From Dehalococcoidia bacterium (GTDB taxonomy: Bacteria; Chloroflexota; Dehalococcoidia; UBA2979), in contig CBDBMD010000003.1 in the NCBI GenBank assembly GCA_965207415.1, forward strand, positions 2,480,991 through 2,544,990: a stretch of DNA of 64,000 bases, given 5' to 3'. The notes beneath the pieces are model-generated. The model searched no databases. It was not told the DNA's origin and was given only the letters and a program-made list of their open reading frames with translations. Positions 7,758-57,357 of this stretch are shown here, one piece after another. The stretch's first letter is position 1. Every line of letters starts with the position of its first letter. The translations under genes and the position numbers were made by a program.

Positions 7758-7775
7758 TGATGTAGGCTTACATCA
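7758..7775 (+). promoter_or_regulatory. palindromic operator TGATGTA-ggct-TACATCA overlapping the vapB start codon
   Basis: Perfect 7-bp inverted repeat with a 4-nt spacer. Its last base is the A of the vapB ATG. This is the typical geometry of type II antitoxin autorepression sites. Confidence 0.4.
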
Positions 7776-8026
7776 TGAGTCACCGCACGCAGATCACGCT
7801 GACCGATGAGCAGTATGCGCGGCTGCGCGAGGAGTCCCGGCGCTCCGGCCTCGGCCTCGCGGAGCTGGTCCGCCGGGCGCTCGATCACCGTTACGGAGCG
7901 GCTCCCGGCACGGAGCTCCGGAGCGCCCTCGACGCGAGCTTCGCCTCCTGGGCGGACCGTGACTTCGATGGCGCGAGCTACGTCGAGGGGCTGCGCCACG
8001 GCATGTCTCGCCGGCTGGCGGACTGA
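7775..8026 (+). CDS. vapB: ribbon-helix-helix antitoxin (VapB-like)
   Basis: 83 aa. The N-terminal ITLTDEQYARLREESRRSGLGLAELVRRAL is an RHH fold signature. Its stop overlaps the start of the downstream PIN gene (ATGA). Confidence 0.65.
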   Translation: MSHRTQITLTDEQYARLREESRRSGLGLAELVRRALDHRYGAAPGTELRSALDASFASWADRDFDGASYVEGLRHGMSRRLAD

Positions 8027-8406
8027 TGGCGATCGTCGTCGACACCTCGGTGCTGATCGACCACCTGCGAGGCGAGGAAGCGGCTCGCGAGGCGCTTCGC
8101 GGCGCGACGGCCGCCGGCGAGCGGCTCGTCGCGTCCGTACTCACCAGGGTCGAGGTGCTGGCCGGGATGCGGGCGCCGGAGGAGCGCGCCACGCGTCGCC
8201 TGCTCGACAGCCTCGACTGGATCGAGGTGGATGACGAGCTCGCCGAACGTGCCGGCATGCTGGCCAACCGCCTTCTGCCGTCGCACCCCGGTGTCGATCC
8301 GGTCGACTACGTGATTGCGGCGACGGCCGAACGCCTCGACGCGCGACTCTGGACTCGCAACGTCCGCCACTTCCCGATGTTCCCGGAGCTCGAGCCCCCG
8401 TATTGA
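8026..8406 (+). CDS. vapC: PIN-domain ribonuclease toxin (VapC)
   Basis: 126 aa. [12 protein letters not shown] (first acidic residue), the central LTRVEV and the C-terminal TRNVRHF are typical of VapC PIN domains. Translationally coupled to the RHH gene. Confidence 0.8.
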
Positions 8407-8483
8407 GACGCTGCGGTCCACTCGCTCGCGCTAAGAACGCACGTTCGCTATACTGTGCGCGGCGGGGTACGGCAGGAGGCGGC

Positions 8484-9551
8484 GTGGACGACGAGAAGCG
8501 CGGTCCGCTGGCCCGCACGCAAACCCCCGAAGACATCTCGATCGAGCCCACGCTGCGCCCCCGGCGCCTCGAGGAGTATTTCGGCCAGGACACGGTCAAG
8601 GAGTCGCTCCGGATCGCGATCGCCGCGGCGAAGGGGCGGGGCGAACCGCTCGACCACCTGCTGATTCACGGCCCGCCCGGCCTCGGCAAGACGACGCTCG
8701 CGATGATCCTCGCCTCCGAGATGGGCGTCTCGATCCGCGTCACCTCCGGGCCGGCAATCGAGCGCGCCGGCGATCTCGCCTCGGTGCTGACCAGCCTGCA
8801 GCCCGGCGACGTGCTGTTCATCGACGAGGTGCACCGGCTGCCGCGCGTCGTCGAGGAGATCCTCTACCCGGCGATGGAGGACTGGGCGCTCGACATCATC
8901 CTCGGCAGCGGACCGAAGGCGCGCGACGTGCGGCTCACGCTCAACCGCTTCACGCTGATCGCCGCGACGACGCGCTACGCGCTGGTCTCGCAGCCGCTGC
9001 GCGACCGCTTCGGGGCGAGCTACCGGCTGGACTTCTACGACGAGGCGGCGCTGAGCGAGATCGTGCGCCGATCGGCAGGCGTGCTCGGCTGCGCCATCGA
9101 CGCCGATGGAGTCACGGCGATCGCCAGCCGGGCGCGCGGCACCGCACGCGTCGCCAACCGGCTGCTGCGCCGCGTGCGCGACTACGCCGAGGTCGAGGCG
9201 GACGGGGTGATCACCGAGCCGGTCGCCGCGCTCGCCCTCGCGCAGCTCGGCATCGACGAGCTCGGCCTCGACGCGATGGACCGCGAGCTGCTGCGCGTGC
9301 TCGTCGAGCGCTTCGGCGGCGGCCCGGTCGGCCTCGAGACGCTGGCCGCCGCGGTCTCCGAGGAGGCCGACACGATCATGGACGTCTACGAGCCGTACCT
9401 GCTGAAGATTGGCTACCTGCAGCGCACCCCGCGCGGGCGGGTCGCCTCGCGGCTGGCGTACGACCGCCTGGGCCTGGAGCCGCCCCCCGCGCTGCTCGCC
9501 GCCGTCGCGCAGCAACCCGCGCTGTTCGGCGAGGACGGCGGCGGCGCCTGA
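8484..9551 (+). CDS. ruvB: Holliday junction branch migration DNA helicase RuvB
   Basis: [13 protein letters not shown], Walker [15 protein letters not shown] and DEVHRL are RuvB AAA+ motifs. GTG at 8484 preferred over the ORF-track start at 8403, preceded by AGGAGG. Confidence 0.9.
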
Positions 9552-9561
9552 GGGCTCCGCC

Positions 9562-9767
9562 TCAACGCACCCCGAGCACCATCGCGTCGACCGGGTTGCC
9601 GGCGTCGAAGACGGCGACGGCGAGGCGGCGGCCGGCCGTGAGCTGCGCGGCGGGGATGGCGCGTGAAACCGGGACGGACGTGACCACCGAGGAGAGCGAT
9701 CCGGCGAAGCGGACGGTCGCGGTCCAGGCGGCGCTGTCGAACGAGACCAGGGTGGCGCGCTCCAGCA
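9562..9767 (-). CDS. small hypothetical protein (68 aa), last gene of the phage-derived module
   Basis: ATG preceded by GGAGGTCTAGCG. It starts 3 nt after the stop of the 656-aa upstream gene. No recognisable motif. Confidence 0.35.
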
Positions 9768-9770
9768 TCG

Positions 9771-11740
9771 CTAGACCTCCCCGAGCGTCAGGGTCTGCTC
9801 GTAGCGTGGCCGCGCGCCGCGGGAGAAGCGCAGCCGCAGGCCCGCAACGCGAAACGGCGCGGCAGCGAGGCCGGCCGCCGCGTCGCTGACCTCGATGATG
9901 TCGCCGGGCTCCTGCGCGACGTTGGGCCGCACGAGCAGCTCGCCGCGCTCGACGGCGAGGCGAGACTGGCGCAGCAGCGTGCCGGCGCGCGCGTCGACGC
10001 GGTCCTGCGCGCCGAGATTCTCGTCGACCGCGATGACCGCACCCGCGCCCTCGGCGATCGCGGCTTCGTCGGTCGCCTCGGCGAAGACGCCGCTGCCGAA
10101 GACGCGCGCCCAGCCGGCGGCCGGGCGGCCCAGCTCGATCGCGTGCGCGAGGATGGCGTGGTCCGTGCCGTAGGCATAGTCGGCTGCATCGCCCGCGGAC
10201 GGCTCGGACAGCACCAACAGGCGGCCGTCGCTGCGCAGCCGGTCGGGCAATGCCCGCAGCAGCCGCCGCATGGCGGTCGCGCCCCGCTCGCCGGCGCGGA
10301 CGGTGAACGCCGGACGCAGTAAGCCCGACTCGGCGCTCGCCCCGCGCGCGGTCAGCCGCAGCCCGGCGCGCCGGGCGATCGCGGCGAGGATCTCGATCGC
10401 GCTCCGCTGTCCCGCCTCCCAGACGAGCTGCTCCGCGGCAACCCACGCCTCGAGCAGGCCGAGCCCGTCGACGGCGTCCACCTCGACCGTAGCGGCGCCG
10501 CCACTGCGACGCCGCCGCAGTGCAGCGATCCAGAAGCGCGGCCCCTCGGATGTCTCGGTGCCGGCCGCGCTGCGGTAGCCGGGCTGCACCCACAGCTCGC
10601 CGCCGGGCGCGAGGGCGATCGGGGCGCGGGCGCCGGCGTAGCGCCCGTCCTCGTTGCGCAGCGTCAGCCACAGCCGTCCCTGTTCGCGCTGATCGATCAC
10701 GGCCTCCAGCACGTCGTCCGTCAGCTCCTGCTCGACGTGCGCGATCGGCGCGCGCCAGACCGCGTCCGGCGCTGCGAGCCAGGCGGCGGCGGGCGACGCC
10801 GCTGCGCCGAGCCCGTACGGCGAGGCGTGGACGAAGGGACGCGGGTCGCGCCATTCGCCGTCGCCGTGGAGGCTACCGGCGAGGCCCGCCGCGATCTGCA
10901 CCCGGTCGTAGGCGCCCGTGCCGCGGTAGGACTCGACGAACACGGCCTGCGGCGCGCCGGCGCGCATCAGGCCGCTCGCGAGGTAGCTGATGCCCGATCC
11001 GGCGGCTGCCGAGGCGACCGCGACGAGCGGCAGCCAGTGGCCCGGCGGCCGCGCGCCACCCGAGCCGAGCACCGTCGACCAGACGCCTGCGACTCCGTCC
11101 GCGTCGGTCCCCGACACCAGCACGTTGCAGTCCACCTCGAAGTAGGCGGCGAGGCCGCTGACCGTCGCGAGCGAGCGAGACCAGGCGACGGGCGCGGCCC
11201 ACGCGCCGAGAGCCTGGCGGCGCACCGCGTAGACGGTCCCGTCGGAGGCGTAGAGCACGGTCGCGGACCCGTCACCCTCGAGCGCCGCCGCCACCGCCGT
11301 GACGGACGAACCGGCGGTCGCCACGGTGCGCGTCGCCCCGAAGCTGGCGCCCGAGTCCGCGCTCTCGCGCACCTCGACGCGGACGCCGTCGGGGCGGACG
11401 CTGGCGAGGATGGCGCCGCTGCCGGAGGCCGCCAGCCCGAGGCGTGGCGCGACGGCGACGGTCGCGACGGTGGTCCAGTCTCCGAAGCCCGCGCCCGACG
11501 CAGGGTCGGCCACCCGCTGGCGGCTGAGCGCGCCCGTCGCGGGGTCGATGCGTGCGCGCAGCAGGGCGCCGTCGCCCGCCACGGCGAGGGCGCACGGGCC
11601 GTCGGGCTCGGCGCCCTCGTGGCTGCGCTGCCAGCGCAGCCGGATCGAGCCGGCGTCCCGGTCGAGGAGCCGCACGCGGAGGTGGGGCTCGGCACTGGCC
11701 GACTGCTGGGCGGCGCGGAGGGTGGGGGTGAGCGCTCGCA
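9771..11740 (-). CDS. large Ala/Gly-rich protein of unknown function, phage structural-like (656 aa from MRALTP start)
   Basis: The ORF extends to 11921, but MRALTPTLRAAQ at 11740 starts just downstream of the connector-like gene and is the more plausible start. No catalytic motifs. Position after the connector suggests a head/tail accessory or other virion-associated protein. Confidence 0.45.
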
Positions 11741-11752
11741 TGCGGCTTCGGG

Positions 11753-12358
11753 TTACCCGTCGCTCGGCGAGGTGAGCACGCCCGAGCGGGCGCGGCGCGC
11801 GCGGCCGTGCCTGGCCAGCGCGCGGGCGAACTCGGCGAGCCGCTCCTGCGCCCAGACGTGGTAGTGCCGCCAGGTGTCCGCCCCGCCGACGTTCACGCGG
11901 TTGACCGCGAACGAGGCCCACTCCAGCGCCGCGTAGGCGCCCGCCCCCGTCGCCACGAGGTCATCGAGCGCGGGAGGCAGCGTGCTGCCGACCTCGTCGA
12001 GCGTGTGCAGCTTCGAGTAGTGGACCGTGACCGCCTCGTCCCCGTCCGGCGGCGCGCCGACCTGCAACGTCAGCGTGTCGCCCCAGAGCGAGAACGGCGG
12101 CCGCGAGGGCGGGTACAGCCCGACCGGGTACTCGACAGCGTCGACGCTGACGCGGTCGGTCAGGGCCGCGACGCTGAGGTCGCGGCTGCCGGCGACCGTC
12201 CGCAGCGCCGCGCTCGTCTCGAGCGGCGCGGCGAGCGAGAGCTCGCGGACGGCGCGCTCGATGTGCCGGTCGAGCGCCTCGTCGGGCCAGCGCTCGTTCG
12301 CCGGGTCGGTGTCGCGGAGGTCGCGGCGCAGCCGCGCGCGCATCGACGGCAGGTCCAT
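11753..12358 (-). CDS. phage gp6-like head-tail connector domain protein (about 201 aa)
   Basis: N-terminal MRARLRRDLRDTDPANERWPDEALDRHIERAVRELS resembles the gp6-like head-tail connector motif (by analogy, from memory, with K/RAHLRIDxDDDDALIxxLIxAAR). Start MDLPSM at 12358 is preceded by GAGGAAGAG. Confidence 0.4.
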   Translation of the reverse strand: MDLPSMRARLRRDLRDTDPANERWPDEALDRHIERAVRELSLAAPLETSAALRTVAGSRDLSVAALTDRVSVDAVEYPVGLYPPSRPPFSLWGDTLTLQVGAPPDGDEAVTVHYSKLHTLDEVGSTLPPALDDLVATGAGAYAALEWASFAVNRVNVGGADTWRHYHVWAQERLAEFARALARHGRARRARSGVLTSPSDG

Positions 12359-12469
12359 CTCTTCCTCGATTCGGGCTGGGGAGACCGGGGGTTGGCGGAG
12401 AGGGGTTGGGGAGGAGGGCGGCCGCCCGGCGCCGGCCGGACGGGCCGCCCTCGTGCTCACGGAGTCTGG

Positions 12470-13360
12470 CTAGGGGCGGACGCCGCTGAGCTTCGCGAGC
12501 TTGAGCTCGTTGAAGAGCGCCACGGAGACGTACCACTTGACCCGCACGCGAGTCGCGTCCTTCGTCTCCAGCGCACCGACGCGCTCGATCGTCAGCCCGC
12601 CGGGCGCGGTCAGCCCGGCCACGGCGCCCTCGCCGAACTGCAGGGCGTAGACCGTCGAGGTGTCCTCGGACGTGCCCGTGGTGTCGTCGTCGGCGATGTG
12701 GTCGTTCACGCCGATCGGGATGCCGTCGTAGAAGGCGACCATGCGGCCGAACTCGTCGCGGTCGTGCTCGACGACGCCGCCGCCCGCCGCACGCGCGAGC
12801 TTGTTGAGCGCCCGCCGCGAGCGGCGCGACATCAGCAACATTTCCGGCTTCCCGCCCCGCACCGTATCGATCAGCTCGTCGAGCTTGTCGAGGGTGAGCG
12901 TCGCGCCGTTCGCGCCCATCGAGACCGTCTGCGCCGCCGGGCACAGCTCGTCGAGGCCGTCGAACGACTTCGCATCGCTGCTCGTGTCGCCATTGATGAA
13001 CGTGTCGTCGAACTTCTGCTGGACGGACTTCGCCTTGAGCGCGACGACCGCCGCCTCGATGTCCTGCACGTTGTTGCGGGTGCGGGCGATGTAGTTGTCG
13101 ATGTCCGCGTCGCCGCCGAGGATCGTCAGCGCGGTCGTGATCTGCGTGAACGTCGGCGTGTCCTCGGACCAGGTGTCGCCCACCGAGTAGAAGCCGGCCG
13201 AGGCCGAGAGCTTCTCGCGGTTGTAGGTGAGGCCATTGCCGACGATCTCGATGAACGGCAGCCGCTGCAGGATCGGGCTGTCGTAGATCACCGTCTCGAT
13301 CACGCCCTCGAGCAGGACGTCGTTCGAGAGCTTCGCGCCTTCGGTCAGGGTCAGTGCCAT
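12470..13360 (-). CDS. phage major capsid protein (HK97-fold-like)
   Basis: 296 aa beginning MALTLTEGAKLSNDVLLEGVIETVIYDSPILQRLPFIEIVGNGLTYNRE. I recall this N-terminal pattern from proteins annotated as phage major capsid proteins in high-GC Gram-positive genomes. A scaffold-like gene lies immediately upstream. Confidence 0.55.
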   Translation of the reverse strand: MALTLTEGAKLSNDVLLEGVIETVIYDSPILQRLPFIEIVGNGLTYNREKLSASAGFYSVGDTWSEDTPTFTQITTALTILGGDADIDNYIARTRNNVQDIEAAVVALKAKSVQQKFDDTFINGDTSSDAKSFDGLDELCPAAQTVSMGANGATLTLDKLDELIDTVRGGKPEMLLMSRRSRRALNKLARAAGGGVVEHDRDEFGRMVAFYDGIPIGVNDHIADDDTTGTSEDTSTVYALQFGEGAVAGLTAPGGLTIERVGALETKDATRVRVKWYVSVALFNELKLAKLSGVRP

Positions 13361-13476
13361 CGTGTCGTGTTCCGTTCCTTCCGGCGCGCGCCGCGCGCCT
13401 TGCTCGCCATTGCCGCGGGCACGCTAGAGGCGTGCGCGCGCTGCTCCGAGGGCCATGTGGCAGCGCTCGCCGCCGG

Positions 13477-13965
13477 CTACGTCCGGCTCCGCTGCTCGAG
13501 GCCGTACGCGATCTTCTCGGCCGTGCTCATCGCCTCCGTGCGCGGTCCGCGCCGCTCCGGCGCACCGGCGGGGAAGCCGCGCGCCGCCTCGTCCTCCGAC
13601 TCGCGGGCGATCCGCTCCCGGATCTCCGCGACCGTGCGGCGCGCCGCCTCGACCGAGGCATCGACCGCCTCGGTGTCGTCGCCCTCGACCAGTTCGGGCG
13701 GTAGCGACGGCTCGGCCGTCAGCAGCGCACCGCGGTAGCGCGCGACGGCGGCCCGGCGCGCCGCGCGCTCGGCGTCGAGGGCGTCCCGGGCCTCCTGCAG
13801 CTCGCTGCGCAGCGTGGTCAGCTCGTCGTGTTCCGCCTCAGCGACGGCGGCGAGCTCTGCCGCCGCCTCGTCGGGCAGGTCGTCCCCGGACGGTTCGGGA
13901 TCCGCGATCGGCTCGCTCGAGGCCGCGTCCTCACCGTCCTGCTCAATCGCGTCGTGTTCGGTCAT
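13477..13965 (-). CDS. phage scaffolding-like protein (acidic, coiled-coil)
   Basis: 162 aa, very acidic (D/E-rich) N-terminus and heptad-like Ala/Glu/Arg-rich segments. It lies directly upstream of the capsid gene, the classical scaffold position. SD AAGGAGAG before the ATG. Confidence 0.4.
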   Translation of the reverse strand: MTEHDAIEQDGEDAASSEPIADPEPSGDDLPDEAAAELAAVAEAEHDELTTLRSELQEARDALDAERAARRAAVARYRGALLTAEPSLPPELVEGDDTEAVDASVEAARRTVAEIRERIARESEDEAARGFPAGAPERRGPRTEAMSTAEKIAYGLEQRSRT

Positions 13966-33418: not shown

Positions 33419-33496
33419 TCCACCCTTCGCGCCCGGCGCGCTCAAGCAGGTAGACTGGACCCGTAGCCCCTTCCTGCCCGTCCGAAACGGAAGGCG

Positions 33497-34507
<1,011 letters not shown>

Positions 34508-34509
34508 CC

Positions 34510-35484
34510 ATGCGCGCACGCCTGCTCGGCCTGCTGCGCGGCGGGGCGAGGGGGCCCCGCGATCAGCCCGATCCGCGCGCCGAACCCCCCGCCGGCGACG
34601 GCGCGCCACCACTCCCGCCGCGACTGCTCGCCTCCGCGCGGCGCCTCGAGATCCGCGCCCGCCGCCTCGTCACGAGCGAGCTCGGCGGCGAGTACCGCAG
34701 CACCTTCCGCGGCGCCGGCATCGAGTTCGCCGAGGCTCGCGAGTACGTCCCCGGCGACGACGTGCGCCGCATCGACTGGAACGTCACCGCTCGCATGGGC
34801 GCGCCGTGGGTCAAGGAGTACGTCGAAGAGCGCGAGCTGCACCTCCTCTGCGCCGTCGACGTCTCCGCCTCGCAGCTGGCCGGGCGGCCCGTCCTCGGCC
34901 GCCGCGCGGCCGCGGCCGAGGTCTGCGCGCTGGTCACGCTGGCCGCCGCCTACAGCCACGACCGGACCGGCCTGCTCACCTTCAGCGACCGCATCGAGCG
35001 CTACGTGCCGCCCGCCAAGGGCGCGCGCCACGCGATGCGGCTCGTGCGCGAGGTGCTGCAACCGGACCAGCCACAACCGACCACCTCGATCGCCACGGCC
35101 TGCGATTACCTCGTGCGCGTGCTGCGCCGCCGCTCCACCGTCTTCCTCATCTCGGACTTCATCGACGACGGCTACGAGCGCCCGCTGCGCGACCTGGCCC
35201 GCCGCCACGAGCTGATTGCCGTCGTGGTCGTGGACCCGCTCGACGAGGCGCTGCCGGACGCCGGCATCGTCGAAGTCGAGGACGTCGAGCGCGGGGGCCG
35301 GCTGCTGATCGACAGCTCCGACGATGGTCTGCGCCGGCGCTACGCCGAGGCGGCCGCGGAGCGGCGGGAGCGGCGCGCCGCCACCCTGCGGCGCGCGGGC
35401 GTCGAGGAGCTGATCGTGCGCACCGATGGCGACGCCGCCGAGCCGGTGCTTGAGTACTTCCGCCGCCGGAGCCGCCGCACATGA
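34510..35484 (+). CDS. DUF58 domain protein (MoxR partner, VWA-like)
   Basis: Conserved FAEAREYVPGDDVRRIDWNVTAR and HLLCAVDVSASQ segments. Start overlaps the moxR stop. Confidence 0.8.
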   Translation: MRARLLGLLRGGARGPRDQPDPRAEPPAGDGAPPLPPRLLASARRLEIRARRLVTSELGGEYRSTFRGAGIEFAEAREYVPGDDVRRIDWNVTARMGAPWVKEYVEERELHLLCAVDVSASQLAGRPVLGRRAAAAEVCALVTLAAAYSHDRTGLLTFSDRIERYVPPAKGARHAMRLVREVLQPDQPQPTTSIATACDYLVRVLRRRSTVFLISDFIDDGYERPLRDLARRHELIAVVVVDPLDEALPDAGIVEVEDVERGGRLLIDSSDDGLRRRYAEAAAERRERRAATLRRAGVEELIVRTDGDAAEPVLEYFRRRSRRT

Positions 35485-36500
35485 CGCGCGCACAGCGGCG
35501 CGCAGGGCTGGCGGTCGCGGTGCTGGCGCTGGCCGCCCTCGCGGTCCTCGGCGCGCTCGCCAGCTCACCGGCAGCGGCGCAGCGGGCGACGCCGCTGGAG
35601 CTGCGCGTCGATGTCACGCCGCGCACGGTGACCCTCGGCGATCGGGTGCGGATCACGGTCATCGCGACGCACACGGAGCCGCTCCTGATCACGGCCGACC
35701 CGCCGTCGCGCGGAGACGTGCTGCAACTGATCGAGGCGCTCCCCGCGGAGACCGTCACGCTGCCCGACGGTTCGCTGCAGACCGAAATCGCGTTCACCGT
35801 CGCCGCCTTCGCGCTCGGCCCGCAGGACGCCGGTCCCCTGCGCATCTTCTGGCTGCGGCAGGACGGCAGCTCCGGCGAGGCGCAGGCGATCCCGCCCACC
35901 TTCGAGGTCGCAAGCGCACTCCTCGATGACTCCGGGGCGCTGCGGCCGCTGAAGCCGCAGGCGGCGTTCGGCGAGCCGCCTCCCGCCTGGGTGCGGCCCG
36001 CGATCGTCGCCGGCGCGCTGCTCGCGCTTGCGCTCCTCGCGGCGGTCGCCGTGGGCTGGCTGCGGCGCCGTGCCCCGGCGCCCGCGCCGCCTCCCGAGCA
36101 GCACGAGCTCGCACCCGAGACCGCCGCGCGGCGGCGGCTCGAGGAGCTGGCCGGAAGCGGCGCGCTCGCGCGCGGCGAGTACGAGCGCTTCTACGGCACG
36201 CTCTCCGTGGTGCTGCGCAACTACCTGGAGGCGCGCTTCGAGTTCAACGCCACGGCGCTCACCACGCCGGAGCTGGACCGCTCGATGGGCGGTTACGGGA
36301 TCGAGCGCTGGCAGGCGCGCCTCGCCGGCGGGCTGCTGGAACGCTGCGACGCCGCCGTCTACGCGGGCCGCCATCCCGATCTCGGCTCCGCCGACCACGA
36401 CCTGACCGTGGCTTTCGAGATCATCGACCTCTCGCGTACGGGACCACCCGCCGGCGTCGGCGCGTACGGCGGACCCGGTCCGGCAACGAGGCGGCCATGA
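35481..36500 (+). CDS. membrane protein of the Bat operon (signal peptide + extracytoplasmic domain + TM + DUF4381-like cytoplasmic tail)
   Basis: N-terminal signal/TM, a central TM helix PAIVAGALLALALLAAVAVGWL, then a helical tail (ARRRLEELAGSG...YERFYGTLSVVLRNYLE) resembling DUF4381. 4-nt overlaps with both neighbours. Confidence 0.45.
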   Translation: MTRAQRRAGLAVAVLALAALAVLGALASSPAAAQRATPLELRVDVTPRTVTLGDRVRITVIATHTEPLLITADPPSRGDVLQLIEALPAETVTLPDGSLQTEIAFTVAAFALGPQDAGPLRIFWLRQDGSSGEAQAIPPTFEVASALLDDSGALRPLKPQAAFGEPPPAWVRPAIVAGALLALALLAAVAVGWLRRRAPAPAPPPEQHELAPETAARRRLEELAGSGALARGEYERFYGTLSVVLRNYLEARFEFNATALTTPELDRSMGGYGIERWQARLAGGLLERCDAAVYAGRHPDLGSADHDLTVAFEIIDLSRTGPPAGVGAYGGPGPATRRP

Positions 36501-37447
36501 GCTTCGCGAGCCCCTGGCTGTTGCTCCTGCTCCCCCTTGCCGGGCTGCTGCTGCTCGCCCCCATACTGCTCCGGCCGCGCCGGCCCCGGCTCGCCGTCGC
36601 CGACCTCGCGCTGCTGAGCGCGGCCGCCGCCCCCAGCTGGCGGCTGCGGCTGCGCTGGCTGCCCTGGCTGCTGCGCGCCGCCGCCATCGCGTTGCTGATC
36701 TTCGCCGCCGCTCGCCCCCAGCGCGGCCTCGCCCTCACCACGCTGCCCGAGGACGGCATCGACATCGTCGTCGTCCTCGATGTCTCCGGCTCGATGAGCC
36801 AGCTCGCCGAGCCCGGCCGCAACGCGCCCAGCAAGCTCGAGGCCGCGCAGGAGGTCATCGGCGAGTTCATCGAGAGCCTCGAGGGCGACCGCATCGGCCT
36901 CGTCGCCTTCCAGTCGCGCGCGATCCTGCTCTCCCCGCTCACGCTCGACCACGACGCGCTCGGCCGGCAGGTCGACGCCGCCGAGTCCGGACTGATCCCG
37001 GACGGCACGGCGATCGGGCTCGGCATCGCGGAGGCGCTCAACCTGCTGCGGGAGTCGCCGGCGCGAAGCCGCATCGCGGTGCTGCTGACCGACGGCGAGA
37101 ACAACCAGGGCGAGGTGCCGCCGATGCAGGCAGCGAGGATCGCGGAGACGCTCGGCATCCGCATCTACACGATCGGCCTCCACGGCGCCGCGCGCGGCGG
37201 CAGCCAGGTCGACGTGCGGTTGCTGCAGCAGATCGCCGCCGTGACCGACGCCGGCTACTTCGACGCCGCCACCCAGGTCGAGCTCTCCGAGGCCTACCGC
37301 GAGGTCCGCCGGCTTGAACGCAGCCGCGTGGGCGAGCGGCGCTTCACCGAGTTCCACGAGTACGGACCGCTGCTCGCGGTCGCCGCGCTGCTGCTGCTGG
37401 CCGCGGAGGTAGGCCTGCGCGCGACCGTCTTCAGGAGATACCCGTGA
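36497..37447 (+). CDS. VWA-domain membrane protein BatA-like
   Basis: Two N-terminal TM helices, a VWA MIDAS motif DIVVVLDVSGSMS and a C-terminal TM helix. Confidence 0.8.
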   Translation: MSFASPWLLLLLPLAGLLLLAPILLRPRRPRLAVADLALLSAAAAPSWRLRLRWLPWLLRAAAIALLIFAAARPQRGLALTTLPEDGIDIVVVLDVSGSMSQLAEPGRNAPSKLEAAQEVIGEFIESLEGDRIGLVAFQSRAILLSPLTLDHDALGRQVDAAESGLIPDGTAIGLGIAEALNLLRESPARSRIAVLLTDGENNQGEVPPMQAARIAETLGIRIYTIGLHGAARGGSQVDVRLLQQIAAVTDAGYFDAATQVELSEAYREVRRLERSRVGERRFTEFHEYGPLLAVAALLLLAAEVGLRATVFRRYP

Positions 37448-39315
37448 TTGGCCTGGCCGACCCGCTGGCGCTGCTCTGGCTGGCAATCCTGCTGCCGGTG
37501 CTGTTCGCGACCTCCTACGCCACGCGGCGGCGGCGCGAGGCGGACGATGCGTTCGGCGGCGGCACGGCGCTGCGTCGTGGGCGCGTCGAGTGGCGACGCC
37601 CGCTGCAGCAGCTGCTGCTGCTCGCCGCGATCGTGCTGGTCGTGATCGCCGTCGCGCGTCCGCAGTGGGGCGAGGAGGAGCGGCCGCTGACCCGGCTCGG
37701 CATCGACGTCGCGGTCGCCCTCGATGTCTCGCGCTCGATGACCGCGAGCGACATCGCGCCCTCGCGCGCCGACGCGGCCGCGGCCGCGCTCGACCAGCTC
37801 TTCAACCACCTGCGCGGCGATCGCGTCGGCCTCGTGACGTTCGCCGGCGACGCGTTCGAGCGGTCCCCGCTCACCCTCGACCTCGATGCGGTGCGCCAGC
37901 TGGTCGCGCGCGCGCAGGAGGAGCAGGCCTTCGTGCGGCCCGGGACGGACCTCGGCGGCGCGCTCGAGGCGGCGCTGCGCCTGCTCGACATCGAGGATCC
38001 CGCCGAGACGCAGGTGATCGTACTGATCTCGGACGGCGAGGACCTCGCCGAGGATCTCGGAGACGCCCTCGAGGAAGCAGAGGACGCCGGCGTCCGCGTC
38101 TTCACCGTCGCCGCCGGGACACCCGACGGGGGGACGATGGCCGCACGCGAGAGCGGCGACGAGGGCGCGCCCACCGTGCGCCGCCCGGCGGGCGACGAAC
38201 TGAGCCGCGCGGACCGGCCCACGCTCCAGCGCATCGCCGACGCAACCGGCGGCGACCTGCGCGAGCTGGGCGAACTGCCCGGACTCGCCGTGGAGTTCCA
38301 GCGGCTCCGGCAATCCGCTTTCGACCAGGGCGCGAACCGCGCGCCCGTCGAGCGCTTCCAGTGGTTCCTCGGCGGCGCGCTGCTGCTGCTCGTCCTCCAG
38401 GCGCTCGCCGCCGACGGCAGCTGGCAGCGGCGCCTCGGCGTTGGCCGCCTCACCCTCGCCGCCTCCACGCTGCCGGCGATCGCGCTGATCGTCGCCTGCG
38501 CCAGCGCCGAGTACGCGGCCACCGAGGACGGCCACGACGCCTACGCCGCCGGCCGCTACGACGACGCCCTCGCCTCCTATCGCGACGCCGAGGCGGTCGC
38601 GCCGGAGGCCCCGGAGCCGCCCTACAACATCGGCAACACGCTGCACCAACTCGGCCGTTACGAGGAGGCGACGGTCGCCTCGTCGACGGCGATGAGCGCC
38701 GCCCTCGATCCGCTGCTGTTCACTCGCGCGGCCTACGCCCTCGGCAGCCACGCCTTCCGCCGCAACGACCTCGAGGCCGCCCGCGACGCCTGGATCAGCG
38801 TGCTGTTGCGCGACCCCTCGGACCTCGACGCAAAGCACAACCTCGAGCTGACGCTGAGCCTCCTCGCCGGCCCCGAGGAGACGCCCGCGCCCACGCCTCC
38901 CGCCGGCGGCGGCGACGGGGAGGGCCAGGGCGAGGGCGAGGGGGGTACGGGGGACGAGGAGCCGCCTCCCGACGACGCCAGCCCCGACCAGTCCGGTGAG
39001 GGCGGCGGCCAGCCGCAGCCCGGCCCGACACCCGACGCGACCCCGGAGCGCAACGGCGCCGGCGATTCGCCGCCGCCCTCGGACCCCGCGGACTCGGGCG
39101 GCTCACCGGCGGGCGGGCCGGGCGCGCAGGTGGAGCAAGAGCAACCCCCGACGCTCGACGATGCGCGCGCGCTGCTCGCCGAAGAGGCGCTGCGGATCGG
39201 CGACGAGGCGCTGACCATCGAGGACGCGATCGCCCTGCTGGAGCTGGTGCGCCGCACGAGTGAGCTCGAGGCGCTGGCGCCGCGCGGCGTGGCCGGCGGA
39301 CCCGGGGACCGCTAG
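37444..39315 (+). CDS. VWA domain + TPR repeat protein (BatB/BatC-like fusion) with Pro/Gly/Glu-rich low-complexity C-terminal region
   Basis: VWA MIDAS motif DVAVALDVSRSMT, a TM helix, TPR-like repeats (AYAAGRYDDALASYRDA, YNIGNTLHQLGRYEEA), then a PAPTPPAGGGDGEGQGEGEGG acidic linker. Confidence 0.7.
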   Translation: MIGLADPLALLWLAILLPVLFATSYATRRRREADDAFGGGTALRRGRVEWRRPLQQLLLLAAIVLVVIAVARPQWGEEERPLTRLGIDVAVALDVSRSMTASDIAPSRADAAAAALDQLFNHLRGDRVGLVTFAGDAFERSPLTLDLDAVRQLVARAQEEQAFVRPGTDLGGALEAALRLLDIEDPAETQVIVLISDGEDLAEDLGDALEEAEDAGVRVFTVAAGTPDGGTMAARESGDEGAPTVRRPAGDELSRADRPTLQRIADATGGDLRELGELPGLAVEFQRLRQSAFDQGANRAPVERFQWFLGGALLLLVLQALAADGSWQRRLGVGRLTLAASTLPAIALIVACASAEYAATEDGHDAYAAGRYDDALASYRDAEAVAPEAPEPPYNIGNTLHQLGRYEEATVASSTAMSAALDPLLFTRAAYALGSHAFRRNDLEAARDAWISVLLRDPSDLDAKHNLELTLSLLAGPEETPAPTPPAGGGDGEGQGEGEGGTGDEEPPPDDASPDQSGEGGGQPQPGPTPDATPERNGAGDSPPPSDPADSGGSPAGGPGAQVEQEQPPTLDDARALLAEEALRIGDEALTIEDAIALLELVRRTSELEALAPRGVAGGPGDR

Positions 39316-39319
39316 AGAC

Positions 39320-41728
39320 TCAGCGTGCGAGGCGGCGCAGCCACAGGCGGCGCAGCAGCAGCTCCCGGAAGAGCCGGTTGCGCAGGCGGCGGTAGAGCGC
39401 GTCGGCGCGGCGCACCGCCGGATCGTCCTCGTCACCCTCGTCCGTCGCCGGCGCCCGATCGGCGGCGGCGGCAGGCGCGCCGTAGCGCTCGCGCGTGAAG
39501 GCATCGGCGAGGATCTCGACGGGCTCCTCGCTCTCGAGGTCGCGCTTCAGTCCGGCGGCGGCCTCGAGCGGCGTGCGGTTGGTGGGGGCCGGGATGCCCG
39601 CCCAGCCGGAGATCCGCTGCACCCTGGCCCAGCGCGCCGTGGCCGGGCTCAGCCCTCGATCGGGGAAGGCCCACGCTCCGCGCACGATCAAGAAGAGCAT
39701 GGCGACAACAGCGAGCGCGGCTATCGCCCAGCCCGCGATCAGCCCGAGCGGCGCCCAGAGCGATCCGTCACCGCCGATGAGGTCTCCCCGAGGTCCGCCC
39801 ACGCCCAGCGGTTCCAGACTCTGCTCCAGCAGTTCCGCCAGCTCCAGCGCCGCGATCGCGTCCTCGGTGCTGCCCTCCGGAACTTCGAAGATGCCGGTTC
39901 CTCGCCCGGTCCGGCTAACCAGCTCGCGGACCGGCGCCGGGTTGAACTCCACCCAGCCGTAGCCGGGGAAGAAGACCTCCGGCCACGCCCACGAGTCCTT
40001 CTCGCTCAGCACGAACGCCTCCGACTCCCGGCTGAACGAGGTCGAGTCGAGCGCGAATCCGACGGCAATGCGCGCGGGGATGCCGAGCGTGCGCAGCAGC
40101 ACCACCATCGCCGAGGCGTGATGGTCGAAGTAGCCCTCGCGGCTCTCGAAGAGGAACCAGTCAATCGGATCGCGGCGCGGAGGCGGGTCCGAAACCTTCA
40201 GGCTGAACGGGTAGTTCTCGCGCAGGTAGCGCTCGACCCGGAAGGCGGCGAGGTATGGGGCATCCTGCTCCGTTGCGATGCTCGCGGCCAGTTCACCCAC
40301 CCGAGGCGGAAGATTGTCGGGTATCTGGAGATAGCGCTCCGTCACCCAGGCCGGGTAGTCGGCGCCCGCGGCCATGAGCGCGTCCACGCCCGCGACGGAG
40401 ATGGAGCCCACCGCCGTGTAGCTCTCCCCGTTGCCGACACGGCTGCTCGGCTGGAGTCCGACCACGTCGCTGGGCGAGGCTCCCGTCAGGAACTCGGCCT
40501 CGACATCGGTCGCGAGCGGCTCGCCGACCGTCAGCAGACGGCGATCGCTGAGCGGCGACTCAACGTGGACCTCGACGGCCACGAGGCTCCGCTGCTGCGC
40601 CCTCGTCGCGGGCGTGCCGAAGCGCGCCGCCTCGACCGTGATCGCCGGCGGGTCGACCAGCTCGGTGTCGGAGAGCCGCCAGCCACCGCGTTCGTAGCGA
40701 TCGAAGACGTAGGCACGCAGGTACGCGAGGCCCCCTGTCTCGGCGGAGACGACGTACATCGTCTCGTCGTCGAGGTTGACGCGGCCCTGCAGCGGCAGGG
40801 CGCCCTCGAACTGGTGGATCAGCTGTCCGTGCTTGCCGTCGATCCCGATGAAGACCTGCCCGAGCGGCTGGATGCGATCGGTGATCGGGCGGACCGCGTT
40901 GCCCCATGCCCCGGCTGCGGGTTCCCAGCCGTCGCCGACAGGCACGATCCAGGCGAAGAGGATCAGCCCCGCCGCCACCCACCCGCCGGCGTGCAGCACC
41001 TGCAGCGAGAGCCAGCGAGGCAGCGCGATCGCCTGGCCTCGCCAGCCGCGAACCGTGCGCAACAGGTGGATGCGCGTGAACAGCAGGATCGCCGCGAAGA
41101 GGAAGATCACGAATTCGAAGGCCGGCTTGCCCGGCAGGTAGGAGATGTTCGTCAGCAGCGCGAACCCGCCCGGCAGCAGCGCCAGCCAGGGGTTGCGCCA
41201 GCGGAACACCGCCCAGGACGCGAGGTACGGGACGAGCCAGACGGCGAAGACCAGCAGCAAGACGAACGGCAACGGGTCCGTGGAGACGCCGCCCGTGACG
41301 AGCGCGCCCAGCCAGTCGCCCATCCGGCCCCACAGATCGCCCCAGCGCGTCGCGATCCCGAGCCCCGGCGCAAACGGGTCGGAGAGCTCCATCGTGTGCA
41401 TCACCATCGCCGTCGACGTCACGACGCCGAGGGCGCCGCCAGCGAGGAACGCCGTCCATGGCCGCGTCCCCAGCAGCGCCAGCAGCGCGCCGGCTGCAAG
41501 CCCGATCGCGGCCGCCACCGGCAGCGCTGGCATCTCGTCGACCCAGTTCGCGCGAGCAATCGAGAAGGCCACGGAGAACTGGGCGATCGCGAGCAGCGCG
41601 AAACTGATCCAGTCTTCCCAGAAGCGCCAGGCCGTCACGCTGCGCGGATCGGCTTCGGCCAGCAGATCGCGCAAGGCGCGGGAACTGAACCCCGCCTGCG
41701 CCGGAGTGCTGTCGGAGAGGGCGCTCAT
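39320..41728 (-). CDS. transglutaminase-like (TgpA/DUF3488-type) polytopic membrane protein, apparently catalytically inactive
   Basis: 802 aa. N-terminal multi-TM DUF3488-like region, a transglutaminase-core-like segment REGYFDHHASAMVVLLRTLGIPARIAVGF, and DSWAWPEVFFPGYGWVEFNPAP. Relative to the canonical C/H/D triad motifs (from memory) all three positions read F/W/N. C-terminal TM helix plus basic tail. Confidence 0.7.
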   Translation of the reverse strand: MSALSDSTPAQAGFSSRALRDLLAEADPRSVTAWRFWEDWISFALLAIAQFSVAFSIARANWVDEMPALPVAAAIGLAAGALLALLGTRPWTAFLAGGALGVVTSTAMVMHTMELSDPFAPGLGIATRWGDLWGRMGDWLGALVTGGVSTDPLPFVLLLVFAVWLVPYLASWAVFRWRNPWLALLPGGFALLTNISYLPGKPAFEFVIFLFAAILLFTRIHLLRTVRGWRGQAIALPRWLSLQVLHAGGWVAAGLILFAWIVPVGDGWEPAAGAWGNAVRPITDRIQPLGQVFIGIDGKHGQLIHQFEGALPLQGRVNLDDETMYVVSAETGGLAYLRAYVFDRYERGGWRLSDTELVDPPAITVEAARFGTPATRAQQRSLVAVEVHVESPLSDRRLLTVGEPLATDVEAEFLTGASPSDVVGLQPSSRVGNGESYTAVGSISVAGVDALMAAGADYPAWVTERYLQIPDNLPPRVGELAASIATEQDAPYLAAFRVERYLRENYPFSLKVSDPPPRRDPIDWFLFESREGYFDHHASAMVVLLRTLGIPARIAVGFALDSTSFSRESEAFVLSEKDSWAWPEVFFPGYGWVEFNPAPVRELVSRTGRGTGIFEVPEGSTEDAIAALELAELLEQSLEPLGVGGPRGDLIGGDGSLWAPLGLIAGWAIAALAVVAMLFLIVRGAWAFPDRGLSPATARWARVQRISGWAGIPAPTNRTPLEAAAGLKRDLESEEPVEILADAFTRERYGAPAAAADRAPATDEGDEDDPAVRRADALYRRLRNRLFRELLLRRLWLRRLAR

Positions 41729-42981
41729 GTGTAGACGCCCCCTCGATCGCCGACGCCGACGGACGAGAGCACCTGCACGAGGTCGTCCTGGCGCTTCACG
41801 GTGTAGGTGTAGACGCCGCTCGAGGCGAGCGTGCCGTAGACATCGAGCGAGCTGGTCGTCGCGCCGAACGTCTCACCCTCGAGCAGCACCGCCGCGACTT
41901 TCACCCCGCGCGCGGAGAGCGACATCAGCGCCAGCGCCCAGTCGTCGCGCGGCGAGGGCGTCACGGCGATCACGGTGGTGTGCCGCCCGAACTTGCGGGA
42001 CTCCTCGAGCAGCAACTGTGCGAGCGAGACGTCGCCCACGGCACGGGCCAGCGCCAGCAGCTCCAGCAGGCGCGTGTAGTGGTTGCCGCCGCGGCTCGGA
42101 TCGTTGACGCGCAGGTCGTCGTCGTAGGCGATCATGCCGACGGAGCGGTTCTGGGTGATGAAGTAGCGCGCGATCGAGGCGGCGACCATCACGGCCGCCT
42201 CCTCGGTGCCGTCGTCGTCCTCGCCGGTGTGGACCGCCTCCTCGAGGTCGAGCAGGACCCAGATGTCGGAGGCGGGATCGAGCTCGAAGAGCTTCACCAT
42301 CAGGTTGCCGGTGCGGGCGGTGGCCGGCCAGTGCACGCGGCTGAGCGAGTCGCCCGCCTCGTAGGCGCGCAGGCCGGCGACGTTGGGCGTGACGTTGTGC
42401 GTGCGCCTGCGGAAGCGCCCGTCTCCCGGCAGGTTCGCCGGCGGCACGTGCAGCCTCGGCAGCTCGGGTGCGCTCGGGTAGACGAGCACCTCCGAGCGCT
42501 CGCCGAAGGTGCGCGACATACGGAAGAACCCGAACGGGTCCGTCGCCGTCACCGTCACCGGGCCCAGCTCGTAGAGCCCGCGCCGCCGCGCCGCCGTCTC
42601 GTAGCGCCAGACGTCGACCCCGCGCCGGCCGAGCGTGAGCACCCGGTTCGTCACATGGTCCGGCAACGTCGAGTGGTCATGGACCTCGAGCCAGACCTTG
42701 GGCAGCCAGGAGCGGGAGCGCACAATCACGCGCCCGTGAAAGGCCCGCCCGCGCGAGACGCGCTGGTCGCGGCGCCGCACCTCCACCTCGATGCCGCGGA
42801 TCATCGAGCGGTTCCAGAAGTAGAGCAGCGGGATCGCGAGCGCGATCAGGTAGGCGAAGCGGAACAGCAGCCAGAACCCGGTGGCGCTGGCGACGGCGAG
42901 GGTGAAGAGCGCGACGGCAATCGCCGCCGCCACGTTGGGCCGGCGCGCGGCGAGGCTTGCGGCCCGCCACAGCGCGCTCAT
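41725..42981 (-). CDS. DUF58 domain protein (second copy, MoxR partner)
   Basis: Two N-terminal TM helices and a conserved LRAYEAGDSLSRVHWPATARTG segment (equivalent to DDxRxIDW). Stop overlaps the downstream transglutaminase-like start (ATGA). Confidence 0.75.
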   Translation of the reverse strand: MSALWRAASLAARRPNVAAAIAVALFTLAVASATGFWLLFRFAYLIALAIPLLYFWNRSMIRGIEVEVRRRDQRVSRGRAFHGRVIVRSRSWLPKVWLEVHDHSTLPDHVTNRVLTLGRRGVDVWRYETAARRRGLYELGPVTVTATDPFGFFRMSRTFGERSEVLVYPSAPELPRLHVPPANLPGDGRFRRRTHNVTPNVAGLRAYEAGDSLSRVHWPATARTGNLMVKLFELDPASDIWVLLDLEEAVHTGEDDDGTEEAAVMVAASIARYFITQNRSVGMIAYDDDLRVNDPSRGGNHYTRLLELLALARAVGDVSLAQLLLEESRKFGRHTTVIAVTPSPRDDWALALMSLSARGVKVAAVLLEGETFGATTSSLDVYGTLASSGVYTYTVKRQDDLVQVLSSVGVGDRGGVYT

Positions 42982-42984
42982 GGC

Positions 42985-54504: not shown

Positions 54505-55770
54505 TCAGGGCAGGTAGATCCTTGGGTTGCGGCGCACGCCGTTCAGCTCGACCTCGAAGTGCAGGTGCGGGCCCGTGGTGCGCCCGGTGAGGCCTGCGTA
54601 GCCGATGACCTGCCCCGCTTCCACCACTTCGCCGTGCTCGACGGCGAAGTTGCGCAGGTGTGCGTAGAGCGTCGCGAATCCGCCGCCGTGCGCGACCTTC
54701 ACATAGAGGCCGTAGGAGCAGCAGCGGTGACCGCCGACGAAGATCACCCTGCCGGCCGCCGCCGTCTTGATCGGGGTACCGACGGGGGCCTTGATGTCGA
54801 TCCCGAGCGGGTGGCTCGGACCGAAGTACGAGGTGATGATGTCCCGGGTGGGCCAGCCGAAGTCAGGCGAGACGATGCGCCCGCCGGGGACCAGAATCGT
54901 CGCCCCGGCCCGTACGGAACCGTCGCGCGGCAGGTCATTCGCCTCGATGATCTCCGCCACGTTGCCTTCGTAGCGCCTGGCGATCTCATCGAGGGTCTCG
55001 CCGCTGCGGATTTCGTGGATGATCCCGTCCACGCTCGGCACCCGCAGCACCTCGCCCACGCGGAGCAGGTCGGGCTCGTAGATGACGTCCATGTTGTTCC
55101 AGATGATGGATTTGGAGCGGATGCCGAAGCGCTGGGCGATGCCGCTGACCGTGTCGCCCTCGCGCACCTCGTAGCTGAGGAACAGCGAGCGCGGCTGCGC
55201 GTCCCACGCCAGAGCCACCAGCCCGGCCGACGCAGGAACAACCAGCCGGTTGGCCAGGTCCCCGGCATCGACATCCGGGAGGGAATCGCTCCGGGACCGG
55301 GTCACCGCCTCGTCCGGCGCGGGCTCCAGCTCGCTCGCGACCGGGGCGCCGGGCGATAGGGAACTCACGAGCGCCGGCCCGATGGGCGCGGGAGCGGACG
55401 GAGCCGGCGCGGCAAGCTGCTCCCAGGCCGGCGAGGCCGGCTGCCCCCAGGCCGCCGCGCCCGCCATGCCGGGCACCGCGATCTTCGCCGCCCTCAGGAC
55501 CGGCGTCTGAGCTGTGGATGTCACGGTGTCGGGGGGCCGGCCGACAGCGAGCACGACGAGCAAGATGAGCGTGACAACCGCCGCGAACAGCGCGGGCTGC
55601 GCCAGCGGGAGCCCTGGCGCGTCGCCGCCGGCAAGGCGCCGACGCTGGGCATACCCGAGTTCGCGCCCGCTCGTGGAAGGCGGACGCGGAAATCCGAGGC
55701 CGATGCTGCCGATGCCTCTTCCTCCTCCGGTCGGGGTGCGGCCACCCCCGCGCGCTGTGCCGCCAGCCAT
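54505..55770 (-). CDS. LysM-LysM-M23 peptidoglycan endopeptidase (paralog A), membrane anchored
   Basis: Two LysM repeats (YEVREGDTVSGIAQRFG; HEIRSGETLDEIARRY) and an M23 domain (GIDIKAPVGTPIKTAAAGRV, LYAHL, GPHLHFEV). N-terminal TM helix. Confidence 0.8.
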   Translation of the reverse strand: MAGGTARGGGRTPTGGGRGIGSIGLGFPRPPSTSGRELGYAQRRRLAGGDAPGLPLAQPALFAAVVTLILLVVLAVGRPPDTVTSTAQTPVLRAAKIAVPGMAGAAAWGQPASPAWEQLAAPAPSAPAPIGPALVSSLSPGAPVASELEPAPDEAVTRSRSDSLPDVDAGDLANRLVVPASAGLVALAWDAQPRSLFLSYEVREGDTVSGIAQRFGIRSKSIIWNNMDVIYEPDLLRVGEVLRVPSVDGIIHEIRSGETLDEIARRYEGNVAEIIEANDLPRDGSVRAGATILVPGGRIVSPDFGWPTRDIITSYFGPSHPLGIDIKAPVGTPIKTAAAGRVIFVGGHRCCSYGLYVKVAHGGGFATLYAHLRNFAVEHGEVVEAGQVIGYAGLTGRTTGPHLHFEVELNGVRRNPRIYLP

Positions 55771-55935
55771 CCGGGAATGGCGTTTTGCCCTAGAGGCACG
55801 CGGAATCCTAGCACGGCCTGCGCGCCGCTCGTCCCCGGCCGACTGTCACGCCGAGGGACCGTCAGGTCGATCGAGGAGCAGCGCGTCGTGCTGCCGGCGG
55901 CATCGCGCCGCGGGCGATCCTCCGAGGCGGTGTCG

Positions 55936-57237: not shown

Positions 57238-57357
57238 ATCAACCGTTCAGGTAGCGATCTACCCGACGGGAAAACAGGATCTTAGCACGGACCAGATGAT
57301 GAGCCGCGACGCGGCGGGTGCGCGGGAAGTCGCGGGCGGTCCGCCCGGCCTTCCCGG

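Follow-up and report, generated by a model that had tools for sequence, protein, structure and literature searches.

A conserved phage-derived shell, neck and tail-tip gene set beside ruvB in Dehalococcoidia: a candidate gene transfer agent-like system of Chloroflexota

We analyzed a 64-kb stretch of DNA from a Dehalococcoidia bacterium (contig CBDBMD010000003.1 of assembly GCA_965207415.1, positions 2,480,991 to 2,544,990; hereinafter the window), in which five consecutive, co-directional open reading frames (ORFs) of the minus strand lie between ruvB and a gene for a GNAT acetyltransferase. These five genes, here termed A to E and collectively the module, are listed with the other features of the locus in Table 1. 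The window has a G+C content of about 72%, and its genuine genes are marked by a G+C content of third codon positions (GC3) of 0.86-0.96, a host coding signature that is shared by each of the five module genes (GC3 0.90-0.95). Outside the module, the 64 kb consist of core chromosome, with every other scanned gene being a housekeeping gene. A preliminary description of this DNA, made by a model from the sequence, had interpreted the five genes as an orphan phage head-morphogenesis module of host-like G+C content, made up of scaffold-like, HK97-type capsid, head-tail connector and two uncharacterized proteins. The five ORFs, their host-like composition and the capsid and connector assignments were all borne out by our analysis, as was the view that no ordinary prophage is present, given that neither terminase, portal, protease, integrase nor repressor genes occur in the window. 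Other parts of that interpretation have to be revised, as detailed below.

The product of gene B passes the Pfam models Phage_capsid (38.2 bits against a cut-off of 24.2, residues 17-284) and SU10_MCP (27.1 bits against 24.1), and matches the PHROG 212 family, 'major head protein', with an E-value of 2e-71. Among cultured phages it is closest to the capsid proteins of PaMx11-like Pseudomonas siphoviruses (43% identity), in which ordinary long-tail gene sets follow the capsid gene; a sequence search for the closest solved capsid structure recovered none. Gene C encodes a protein that passes the Pfam model SU10_adaptor over residues 1-190 of its 201 (40.9 bits against a cut-off of 27, E 4e-10), and it stands downstream of the capsid gene in 70 of the related loci described below. 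Gene A, the ATG of which is preceded by a GGAGA ribosome-binding site, gives weak matches to PHROG head-scaffolding families (E 3e-3 and 0.017) and in 51 relatives immediately precedes the gene for the capsid; its position and composition suggest that it encodes the scaffold.

By sequence, D and E have no matches in Pfam, PHROGs, the PDB or GenBank phages, and the 85 detectable homologues of D are all unnamed Chloroflexi or Dehalococcoidia proteins. An AlphaFold2 model of D, for which 39 homologues were used, attained a predicted local distance difference test score (pLDDT) of 92.5 and a predicted template-modeling score (pTM) of 0.87, and divides the protein into an N-terminal β-propeller and a C-terminal hub. 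The C-terminal 320 residues modeled alone (pLDDT 92.8) adopt a complete tail/baseplate hub fold, whose top matches among predicted viral structures are 'Phage protein D', 'Mu gpP' and '43 kDa tail protein' (E 1e-16 to 1e-11). Because this predicted structure combines a propeller with a complete hub, we interpret D as a tail-tip protein in which a β-propeller is fused to a tail hub, and hence as neither a cargo protein nor a portal. This speaks against the suggestion that it might be the cargo of a nanocompartment, and a portal fold, which had been raised as a candidate for this protein, is ruled out by the same propeller and hub. As for the label of head-morphogenesis module, it stands for the scaffold-like, capsid and adaptor genes and fails for D and probably E, which are better viewed as tail-tip parts.

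The hub fold of D is that of Mu gp44, P2 gpD, T4 gp27 and the VgrG base of extracellular contractile injection systems and type VI secretion systems, at sequence identities of 11-17%. It differs from these hubs in its N-terminal six-bladed propeller, and the window locus further differs from baseplate-hub systems in being devoid of sheath, tube, wedge and tape-measure genes. Variants of D with 790-990 amino acids (aa) occur in several relatives (loci L045, L050, L059, L069 and L078; proteins P0021, P0338, P0349 and P0358), and in these the hub is constant with the N-terminal part being replaced or expanded, a variability that is expected of a receptor-binding region.

No relatives of E are detectable outside the module system. 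In a phage-like contig, L095, the E domain forms the N-terminus of a 424-aa protein, the remaining 340 aa of which look tail-fibre-like and include a stretch ending in DDHPQY that resembles conserved tail-fibre motifs; the E of the window, at 68 aa, differs from this version in being without the long fibre-like extension. Together with the gene order, this fusion suggests that E is probably a plug or anchor seated in the hub.

To gauge the spread of the module we scanned one genome per species for relatives of the capsid protein, which yielded 84 relatives, with 80 loci being kept. These come, with few exceptions, from Dehalococcoidia or other Chloroflexota metagenome-assembled genomes (MAGs), and in all but a few of them the capsid is 67-98% identical to that of the window. 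In tblastn searches about 60-70 of the 80 loci show the genes in the order A-B-C-D-E, ruvB adjoins the module in about 25, distant ones included, and genes for GNAT, VKOR, DsbA and Clp recur upstream of it in several lineages. The synteny at the ruvB-GNAT locus, comparison of which the preliminary description had proposed, is conserved in relatives. Intact copies were counted for the capsid (73 of 79), the adaptor (66 of 70), D (53 of 67) and E (47 of 53); among the D matches scored as 'incomplete', several belong to longer variants whose distal part differs. The window and most of its close relatives (L001-L010) have all five genes in intact form, with partial D and capsid matches in L004 and L010. 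An additional conserved gene of about 126 aa, absent in the window and without a family match, separates the capsid gene from that of the adaptor in 13 loci (L019-L021, L023, L026, L029, L034, L035, L037, L044, L048, L067 and L068), and may encode a decoration protein.

Clustering of all ORFs of these loci uncovered four further genes, located upstream of the module and sharing its strand in at least 19 loci, whose products are a TerS-like protein, TerL, a Cys-rich helix-turn-helix (HTH) protein and a portal (Table 1). Hence the description of the module as an orphan holds for the window stretch of this lineage and fails for many of its relatives, in which these genes are found upstream or a few kb away, at distances of up to about 10 kb. 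The full set in relatives comprises nine genes, namely those for the TerS-like protein, TerL, Cys-rich HTH protein, portal, scaffold, HK97 capsid, adaptor, propeller-hub protein D and the small putative plug; a tail tube gene was found in none of the 80 loci. The families are large, with 3,811 clusters for TerL and more than 4,000 for the portal at 90% identity, and 527 clusters for D at 50% identity (E up to 1e-30). The set is broken up by host genes: between portal and scaffold there are ordinary-looking host genes (by eye including a PlsY-like one) or a sigma and anti-sigma pair, L031, L039 and L040 have only capsid, adaptor, D and E kept together, and L027 and L063 keep terminase through capsid without adaptor, D and E. 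In two complete chromosomes, OZ220734.1 and OY764147.1, the 10 kb upstream of the module are free of packaging genes; the packaging half is instead found past D, at a distance of about 8 kb and convergently oriented, across a gap that holds genes for an anti-sigma factor, an extracytoplasmic function (ECF) sigma factor, a NYN protein, three short-chain dehydrogenases, a major facilitator superfamily transporter and a Yip1 protein. In L127 the packaging half is about 5.5 kb from ruvB.

Evolutionary rates place the module alongside its chromosomal neighbors. In the close clade of the window, the ratio of nonsynonymous to synonymous substitution rates (dN/dS) is 0.06-0.18 for the capsid gene versus 0.08-0.15 for ruvB and 0.10-0.17 for Clp; genes A, C, D and E range from 0.12 to 0.44 (A itself from 0.22 to 0.35), like the neighboring VKOR, DsbA and CMD genes. 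The dS of the module equals that of its flanking genes, and its dN/dS is broadly similar in portal-bearing clades. In the 19 genomes with both, the identities of the module proteins track those of RuvB pair by pair (Pearson 0.91-0.96), the capsid having a coefficient of 0.95 and a mean identity of 82.9% as against 83.1% for RuvB. Over 49 loci the GC3 of the module follows that of the host across a range of 0.65-0.98. Given the conserved synteny, the dN/dS and dS values like those of neighbors, the correlation with RuvB and the GC3 that tracks the host, the module looks like a resident, selected chromosomal gene set and unlike a recent or decaying prophage. Its carriers are Chloroflexota, mostly Dehalococcoidia, in which it has been vertically inherited under purifying selection over a long host divergence, as expected of gene transfer agents (GTAs).

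The viral counterpart of this gene set is found in IMG/VR contigs of 13-15 kb, which carry the same virion genes in one block, including the full-length propeller-hub protein and the E domain. In L092, L095, L105 and their relatives the set comprises TerL, portal, scaffold, capsid, adaptor, D and the E domain, with identities to the window or its chromosomal relatives of 36-50% for the capsid, 31-36% for D and 47-50% for the portal. L092 (14,972 bp) additionally codes for a tyrosine integrase (E 1e-21), an Amidase_2 endolysin (E 2e-15), an HTH_36/DnaD-like protein and a DnaJ-domain protein, and in L095 (13,186 bp) the virion genes are contiguous with the endolysin gene coming after the fibre gene. 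These uncultured phages differ from the chromosomal clusters in the contiguity of the virion genes and in their integrase, Amidase_2 and DnaD-like HTH genes. Because contigs of the L092/L095 type carry the set together with an integrase and/or endolysin, it is a true virion plan of small temperate phages, of which the Chloroflexota clusters are a domesticated derivative.

We therefore consider the five genes of the window to be one half, coding for shell, neck and tail tip, of an old particle gene set of phage origin, which is inherited vertically and most likely performs a GTA-like (viriform) service for the host; we assign this reading a probability of roughly 0.55. We prefer it because integration, replication, lysogeny-control and lysis genes are missing from the set, host genes break it up and its divergence parallels that of the host; indeed, both the window and the related loci have chromosomal structural genes with no integrase, replication, lysogeny-control or att elements. 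A domesticated capsid system, with a GTA-like particle among its candidate forms, had also been proposed in the preliminary description, and with this the conserved synteny, the co-divergence with RuvB and the purifying selection agree. More tentatively, we propose an undescribed, independent GTA of Chloroflexota with nine genes and an adaptor-hub-plug tail, passed on vertically in much of the phylum while its genes moved apart in the chromosome, and of which the window holds one half. Such a system would assemble particles, enclose DNA and transfer it, and the portal and terminase genes of the window genome would be located elsewhere in that genome. In the mechanism we envisage, the scaffold would guide assembly of the capsid protein on the portal, the terminase would fill the head with DNA and the adaptor ring would close the portal. 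A trimer of D would then dock straight on the adaptor as a very short stub tail, plugged by E, and the propeller of D would bind a surface glycan on the target or recipient cell.

Several observations weigh against the GTA-like reading. No terminase or portal gene lies within 9.5 kb on one side and 50 kb on the other side of the module, and no lysis gene linked to the chromosomal clusters was found. For an arrangement in which a hub sits on an adaptor without a tube, we identified no solved virion. Gene E is undetectable after D in one sub-clade (L046, L047, L049, L056, L057, L060, L061 and L074); gene calls around D in L090 and L091 likewise revealed nothing E-like after it. In L075 the capsid, D and TerL genes are fragmented (9.9-13.5 kb and 20.2-20.7 kb) with intact neighbors, which suggests that the system can decay and be lost, unless the breaks stem from misassembly. 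The adjacency to ruvB also means that module and ruvB could in principle have been transferred together.

The first alternative is that the lineage of the window has lost the packaging half, with the five genes now making a particle that is empty or filled with something other than DNA, for example a protein shell or a decoy for related phages, or being in early decay. No TerL or portal gene is present in the 64 kb, and tblastn searches of the window with TerL, portal and TerS from relatives of the module gave no match (best E 0.17). The window-clade TerL and portal were not found among the best 120 of about 4,000 homologue clusters, the route by which those of L047 and L049 were found. A GC-rich back-translation of an invariant portal motif retrieved the high-GC portals of L110, L123, L161 and L127, none of which could be tied to the window clade. 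In the high-GC L110, TerS-TerL-HTH-portal stand directly upstream of a DsbA-VKOR pair resembling the one beside the window module, and in the window it is clp that occupies this place upstream of DsbA. Moreover, the dN/dS of the adaptor and D is 0.18-0.34 in the window clade and 0.11-0.23 in portal-bearing clades, that is about 1.5-2 times higher, and loss does happen, as in L075. However, dN/dS is inflated for all genes of the window clade because their extreme GC3 compresses dS, and the five genes are intact in the window and most of its close relatives, with dN/dS values well below 1 and like those of housekeeping neighbors. Relatives furthermore provide documented cases in which several kb separate the packaging half from the module, and we know of no role for an adaptor without a portal. 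On balance, we regard loss of the packaging half as unlikely, although likelier than the other alternatives. An insertion of about 5 kb between E and ruvB in L002 (13.8-18.6 kb) was considered as a site for the packaging genes and rejected, as it holds insertion sequence elements instead. By eye, the insert carries two transposase-like genes of IS110 and IS630 types, a second copy of part of the 3' end of ruvB and a gene resembling those for carbonic anhydrases.

A further alternative, in which the genes are the decaying and now functionless leftover of an ordinary prophage, would account for the partial virion gene set and the lack of regulatory and lysis genes. Yet the same five genes in the same order are mostly intact in dozens of species, the dN/dS of the capsid gene is that of ruvB, the identities track those of RuvB and the GC3 is ameliorated to each host. 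Intact persistence across RuvB identities down to 70% is unlike prophage remnants, and we hold this explanation to be improbable. Equally improbable in our estimation is a still-mobile small temperate phage or capsid-forming satellite that repeatedly integrates near ruvB. Related temperate phages do exist, as exemplified by the integrase-bearing L092, and eight short IMG/VR contigs have close capsid homologues; however, these close matches are fragments of 4-13 kb that carry the same genes. The 64-kb window has no integrase, lysis, replication, repressor or tRNA genes, and we found no att-like direct repeats bracketing the module, so that the integrase, att sites and contiguous lysis and regulatory modules of an integrated prophage are missing at the locus. 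Host genes lie inside the cluster in relatives, the dS of the module matches that of the flanks and its GC3 follows the host. Regarding satellites such as the capsid-forming phage-inducible chromosomal islands (cf-PICIs), neither integrase, replication/primase nor regulatory genes occur in the window or the related loci, and the position is conserved across species. The possibility of a satellite remnant, entertained in the preliminary description, is thus contradicted by the absence of integrase and replication genes, the fixed chromosomal position and the host genes inside the cluster.

Lastly, a phage-derived, encapsulin-like nanocompartment with D as its cargo is highly improbable: like the gene of an encapsulin, the HK97-fold shell gene here belongs to a bacterial chromosome and has no terminase nearby, its surroundings are housekeeping genes, and gene B gives a faint match to the SrpI-like encapsulin model, but this match falls short of its threshold (15.2 bits against a cut-off of 22.8, E 0.011), the shell gene is followed by adaptor and hub genes, D has the predicted structure of a tail hub rather than an enzyme cargo, and relatives possess portal and terminase.

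Comparisons with known systems bring out the distinctness of the Chloroflexota set. The GTA of Rhodobacter capsulatus (RcGTA) and RcGTA-type GTAs of Alphaproteobacteria belong to a different phylum and have no sequence relationship to it beyond shared folds. RcGTA has a prohead protease, in place of which the Chloroflexota set uses a scaffold, and unlike RcGTA this set of about nine genes is without tail tube, tape measure or megatron. With the phage SU10 (Kuravirus) it shares an adaptor and a capsid that pass the corresponding models at modest scores; the portals of the relatives fit SPP1_portal better, and no homologue of the SU10 nozzle or needle was found.

The base composition of the module also displays certain peculiarities. 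The module GC3 exceeds that of the flanks in 42 of 49 loci (mean +0.04), and in the window the G+C content climbs to 0.76-0.78 across D and the adaptor, owing to codon positions one and two (GC1/GC2), the values being 0.80/0.62 for D, 0.76/0.58 for the adaptor and roughly 0.73/0.45 for neighbors. RcGTA genes are likewise reported to have raised GC1/GC2, attributed to the use of cheaper amino acids (PMC7360931), a parallel that fits the GTA-like reading. The deviations seen here could be due to a comparable amino-acid economy, to expression level or to an artefact of how flank ORFs were selected. A scan of the module for promoters and terminators, which is uninformative at 75% GC, found nothing.

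Chloroflexota are abundant in oceans, sediments, soils and sponges, and are mostly uncultured. A conserved particle system, if real, would be a candidate route of gene exchange in communities rich in them, and would provide a natural example of the minimal gene number of a tailed particle, with a hub docked on an adaptor without a tube. To our knowledge only a handful of independently domesticated GTAs are known, none of them in Chloroflexota; if correct, the present reading would add a further domestication, independent of the others and of a distinct, unusually small architecture. Such loci are probably annotated as prophage debris or counted as viral contigs, for instance the short IMG/VR fragments, and this would bias virome statistics. 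One of the loci, L018, is labelled as a MAG of Thermoflexus hugenholtzii JAD2; T. hugenholtzii is a cultured species and, if its genome matches L018, may allow direct testing. In the full-text literature, with most subscription journals lying outside the coverage, we found no description of such a Chloroflexota system, and a 2024 review of GTAs does not mention Chloroflexota.

Table 1. Features of the ruvB-GNAT locus and its surroundings in the window, and the packaging genes found in relatives
Feature	Size or part	Position	Strand	Assignment and basis
Gene A	162 aa	13477-13965	-	Acidic coiled-coil scaffold-like protein; position and composition
Gene B	296 aa	12470-13360	-	HK97-type major capsid protein; Pfam Phage_capsid, SU10_MCP, PHROG 212
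Gene C	201 aa (ATG as used by relatives)	11753-12358	-	Head-tail adaptor; Pfam SU10_adaptor
Gene D	656 aa	9771-11741	-	Predicted tail-tip protein; no Pfam or PHROG family
Gene D, N-terminal part	residues 1-335	10737-11741	-	Predicted six-bladed β-propeller with Asp-box-like SxDxGxxF motif
Gene D, C-terminal part	residues 336-656	9771-10736	-	Predicted phage tail/baseplate hub (gp27 / Mu gp44 / P2 gpD fold)
Gene E	68 aa	9562-9768	-	Probable plug or anchor; ATG 2 nt past D stop; no Pfam or PDB match
ruvB		8403-9551	+	Flank of the five-gene module
GNAT acetyltransferase gene		ends 14692	+	Opposite flank of the module
TerS-like (relatives)	110-130 aa			Faint small-terminase match
TerL (relatives)	460 aa			Terminase_6C E 9e-4; PHROG TerL E 2e-4
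Cys-rich HTH protein (relatives)				HTH_23 E 2e-9
Portal (relatives)				SPP1_portal E 6e-14; PHROG 64 E 7e-28; faint SU10_portal matches
RHH-PIN pair		7775-8406		CopG-type ribbon-helix-helix (RHH) antitoxin and PIN-domain toxin genes, directly upstream of ruvB
138-aa gene	138 aa	14857-15273		Between the VKOR and GNAT genes; no Pfam match
MoxR cluster		33467-42984		MoxR AAA+ ATPase, DUF58, VWA/TPR BatA-like protein, transglutaminase-like protein
LysM-M23 peptidases		54505-57246		Two tandem paralogues, each with LysM repeats and a Peptidase_M23 domain
Other window genes				ppx, inositol monophosphatase, DEAD helicase, VKOR, DsbA-like, clp, hsp20, secA, prs, dnaE, rsmE, prmA, dnaJ-dnaK-grpE-hrcA, rho, pyrG

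Two of the neighboring features differ in their persistence across the relatives. The RHH-PIN toxin-antitoxin pair is absent from the close relatives L003 and L005 and is therefore a variable insertion. The 138-aa gene, on the other hand, recurs beside the module even in the distant relatives L018, L020 and L038.

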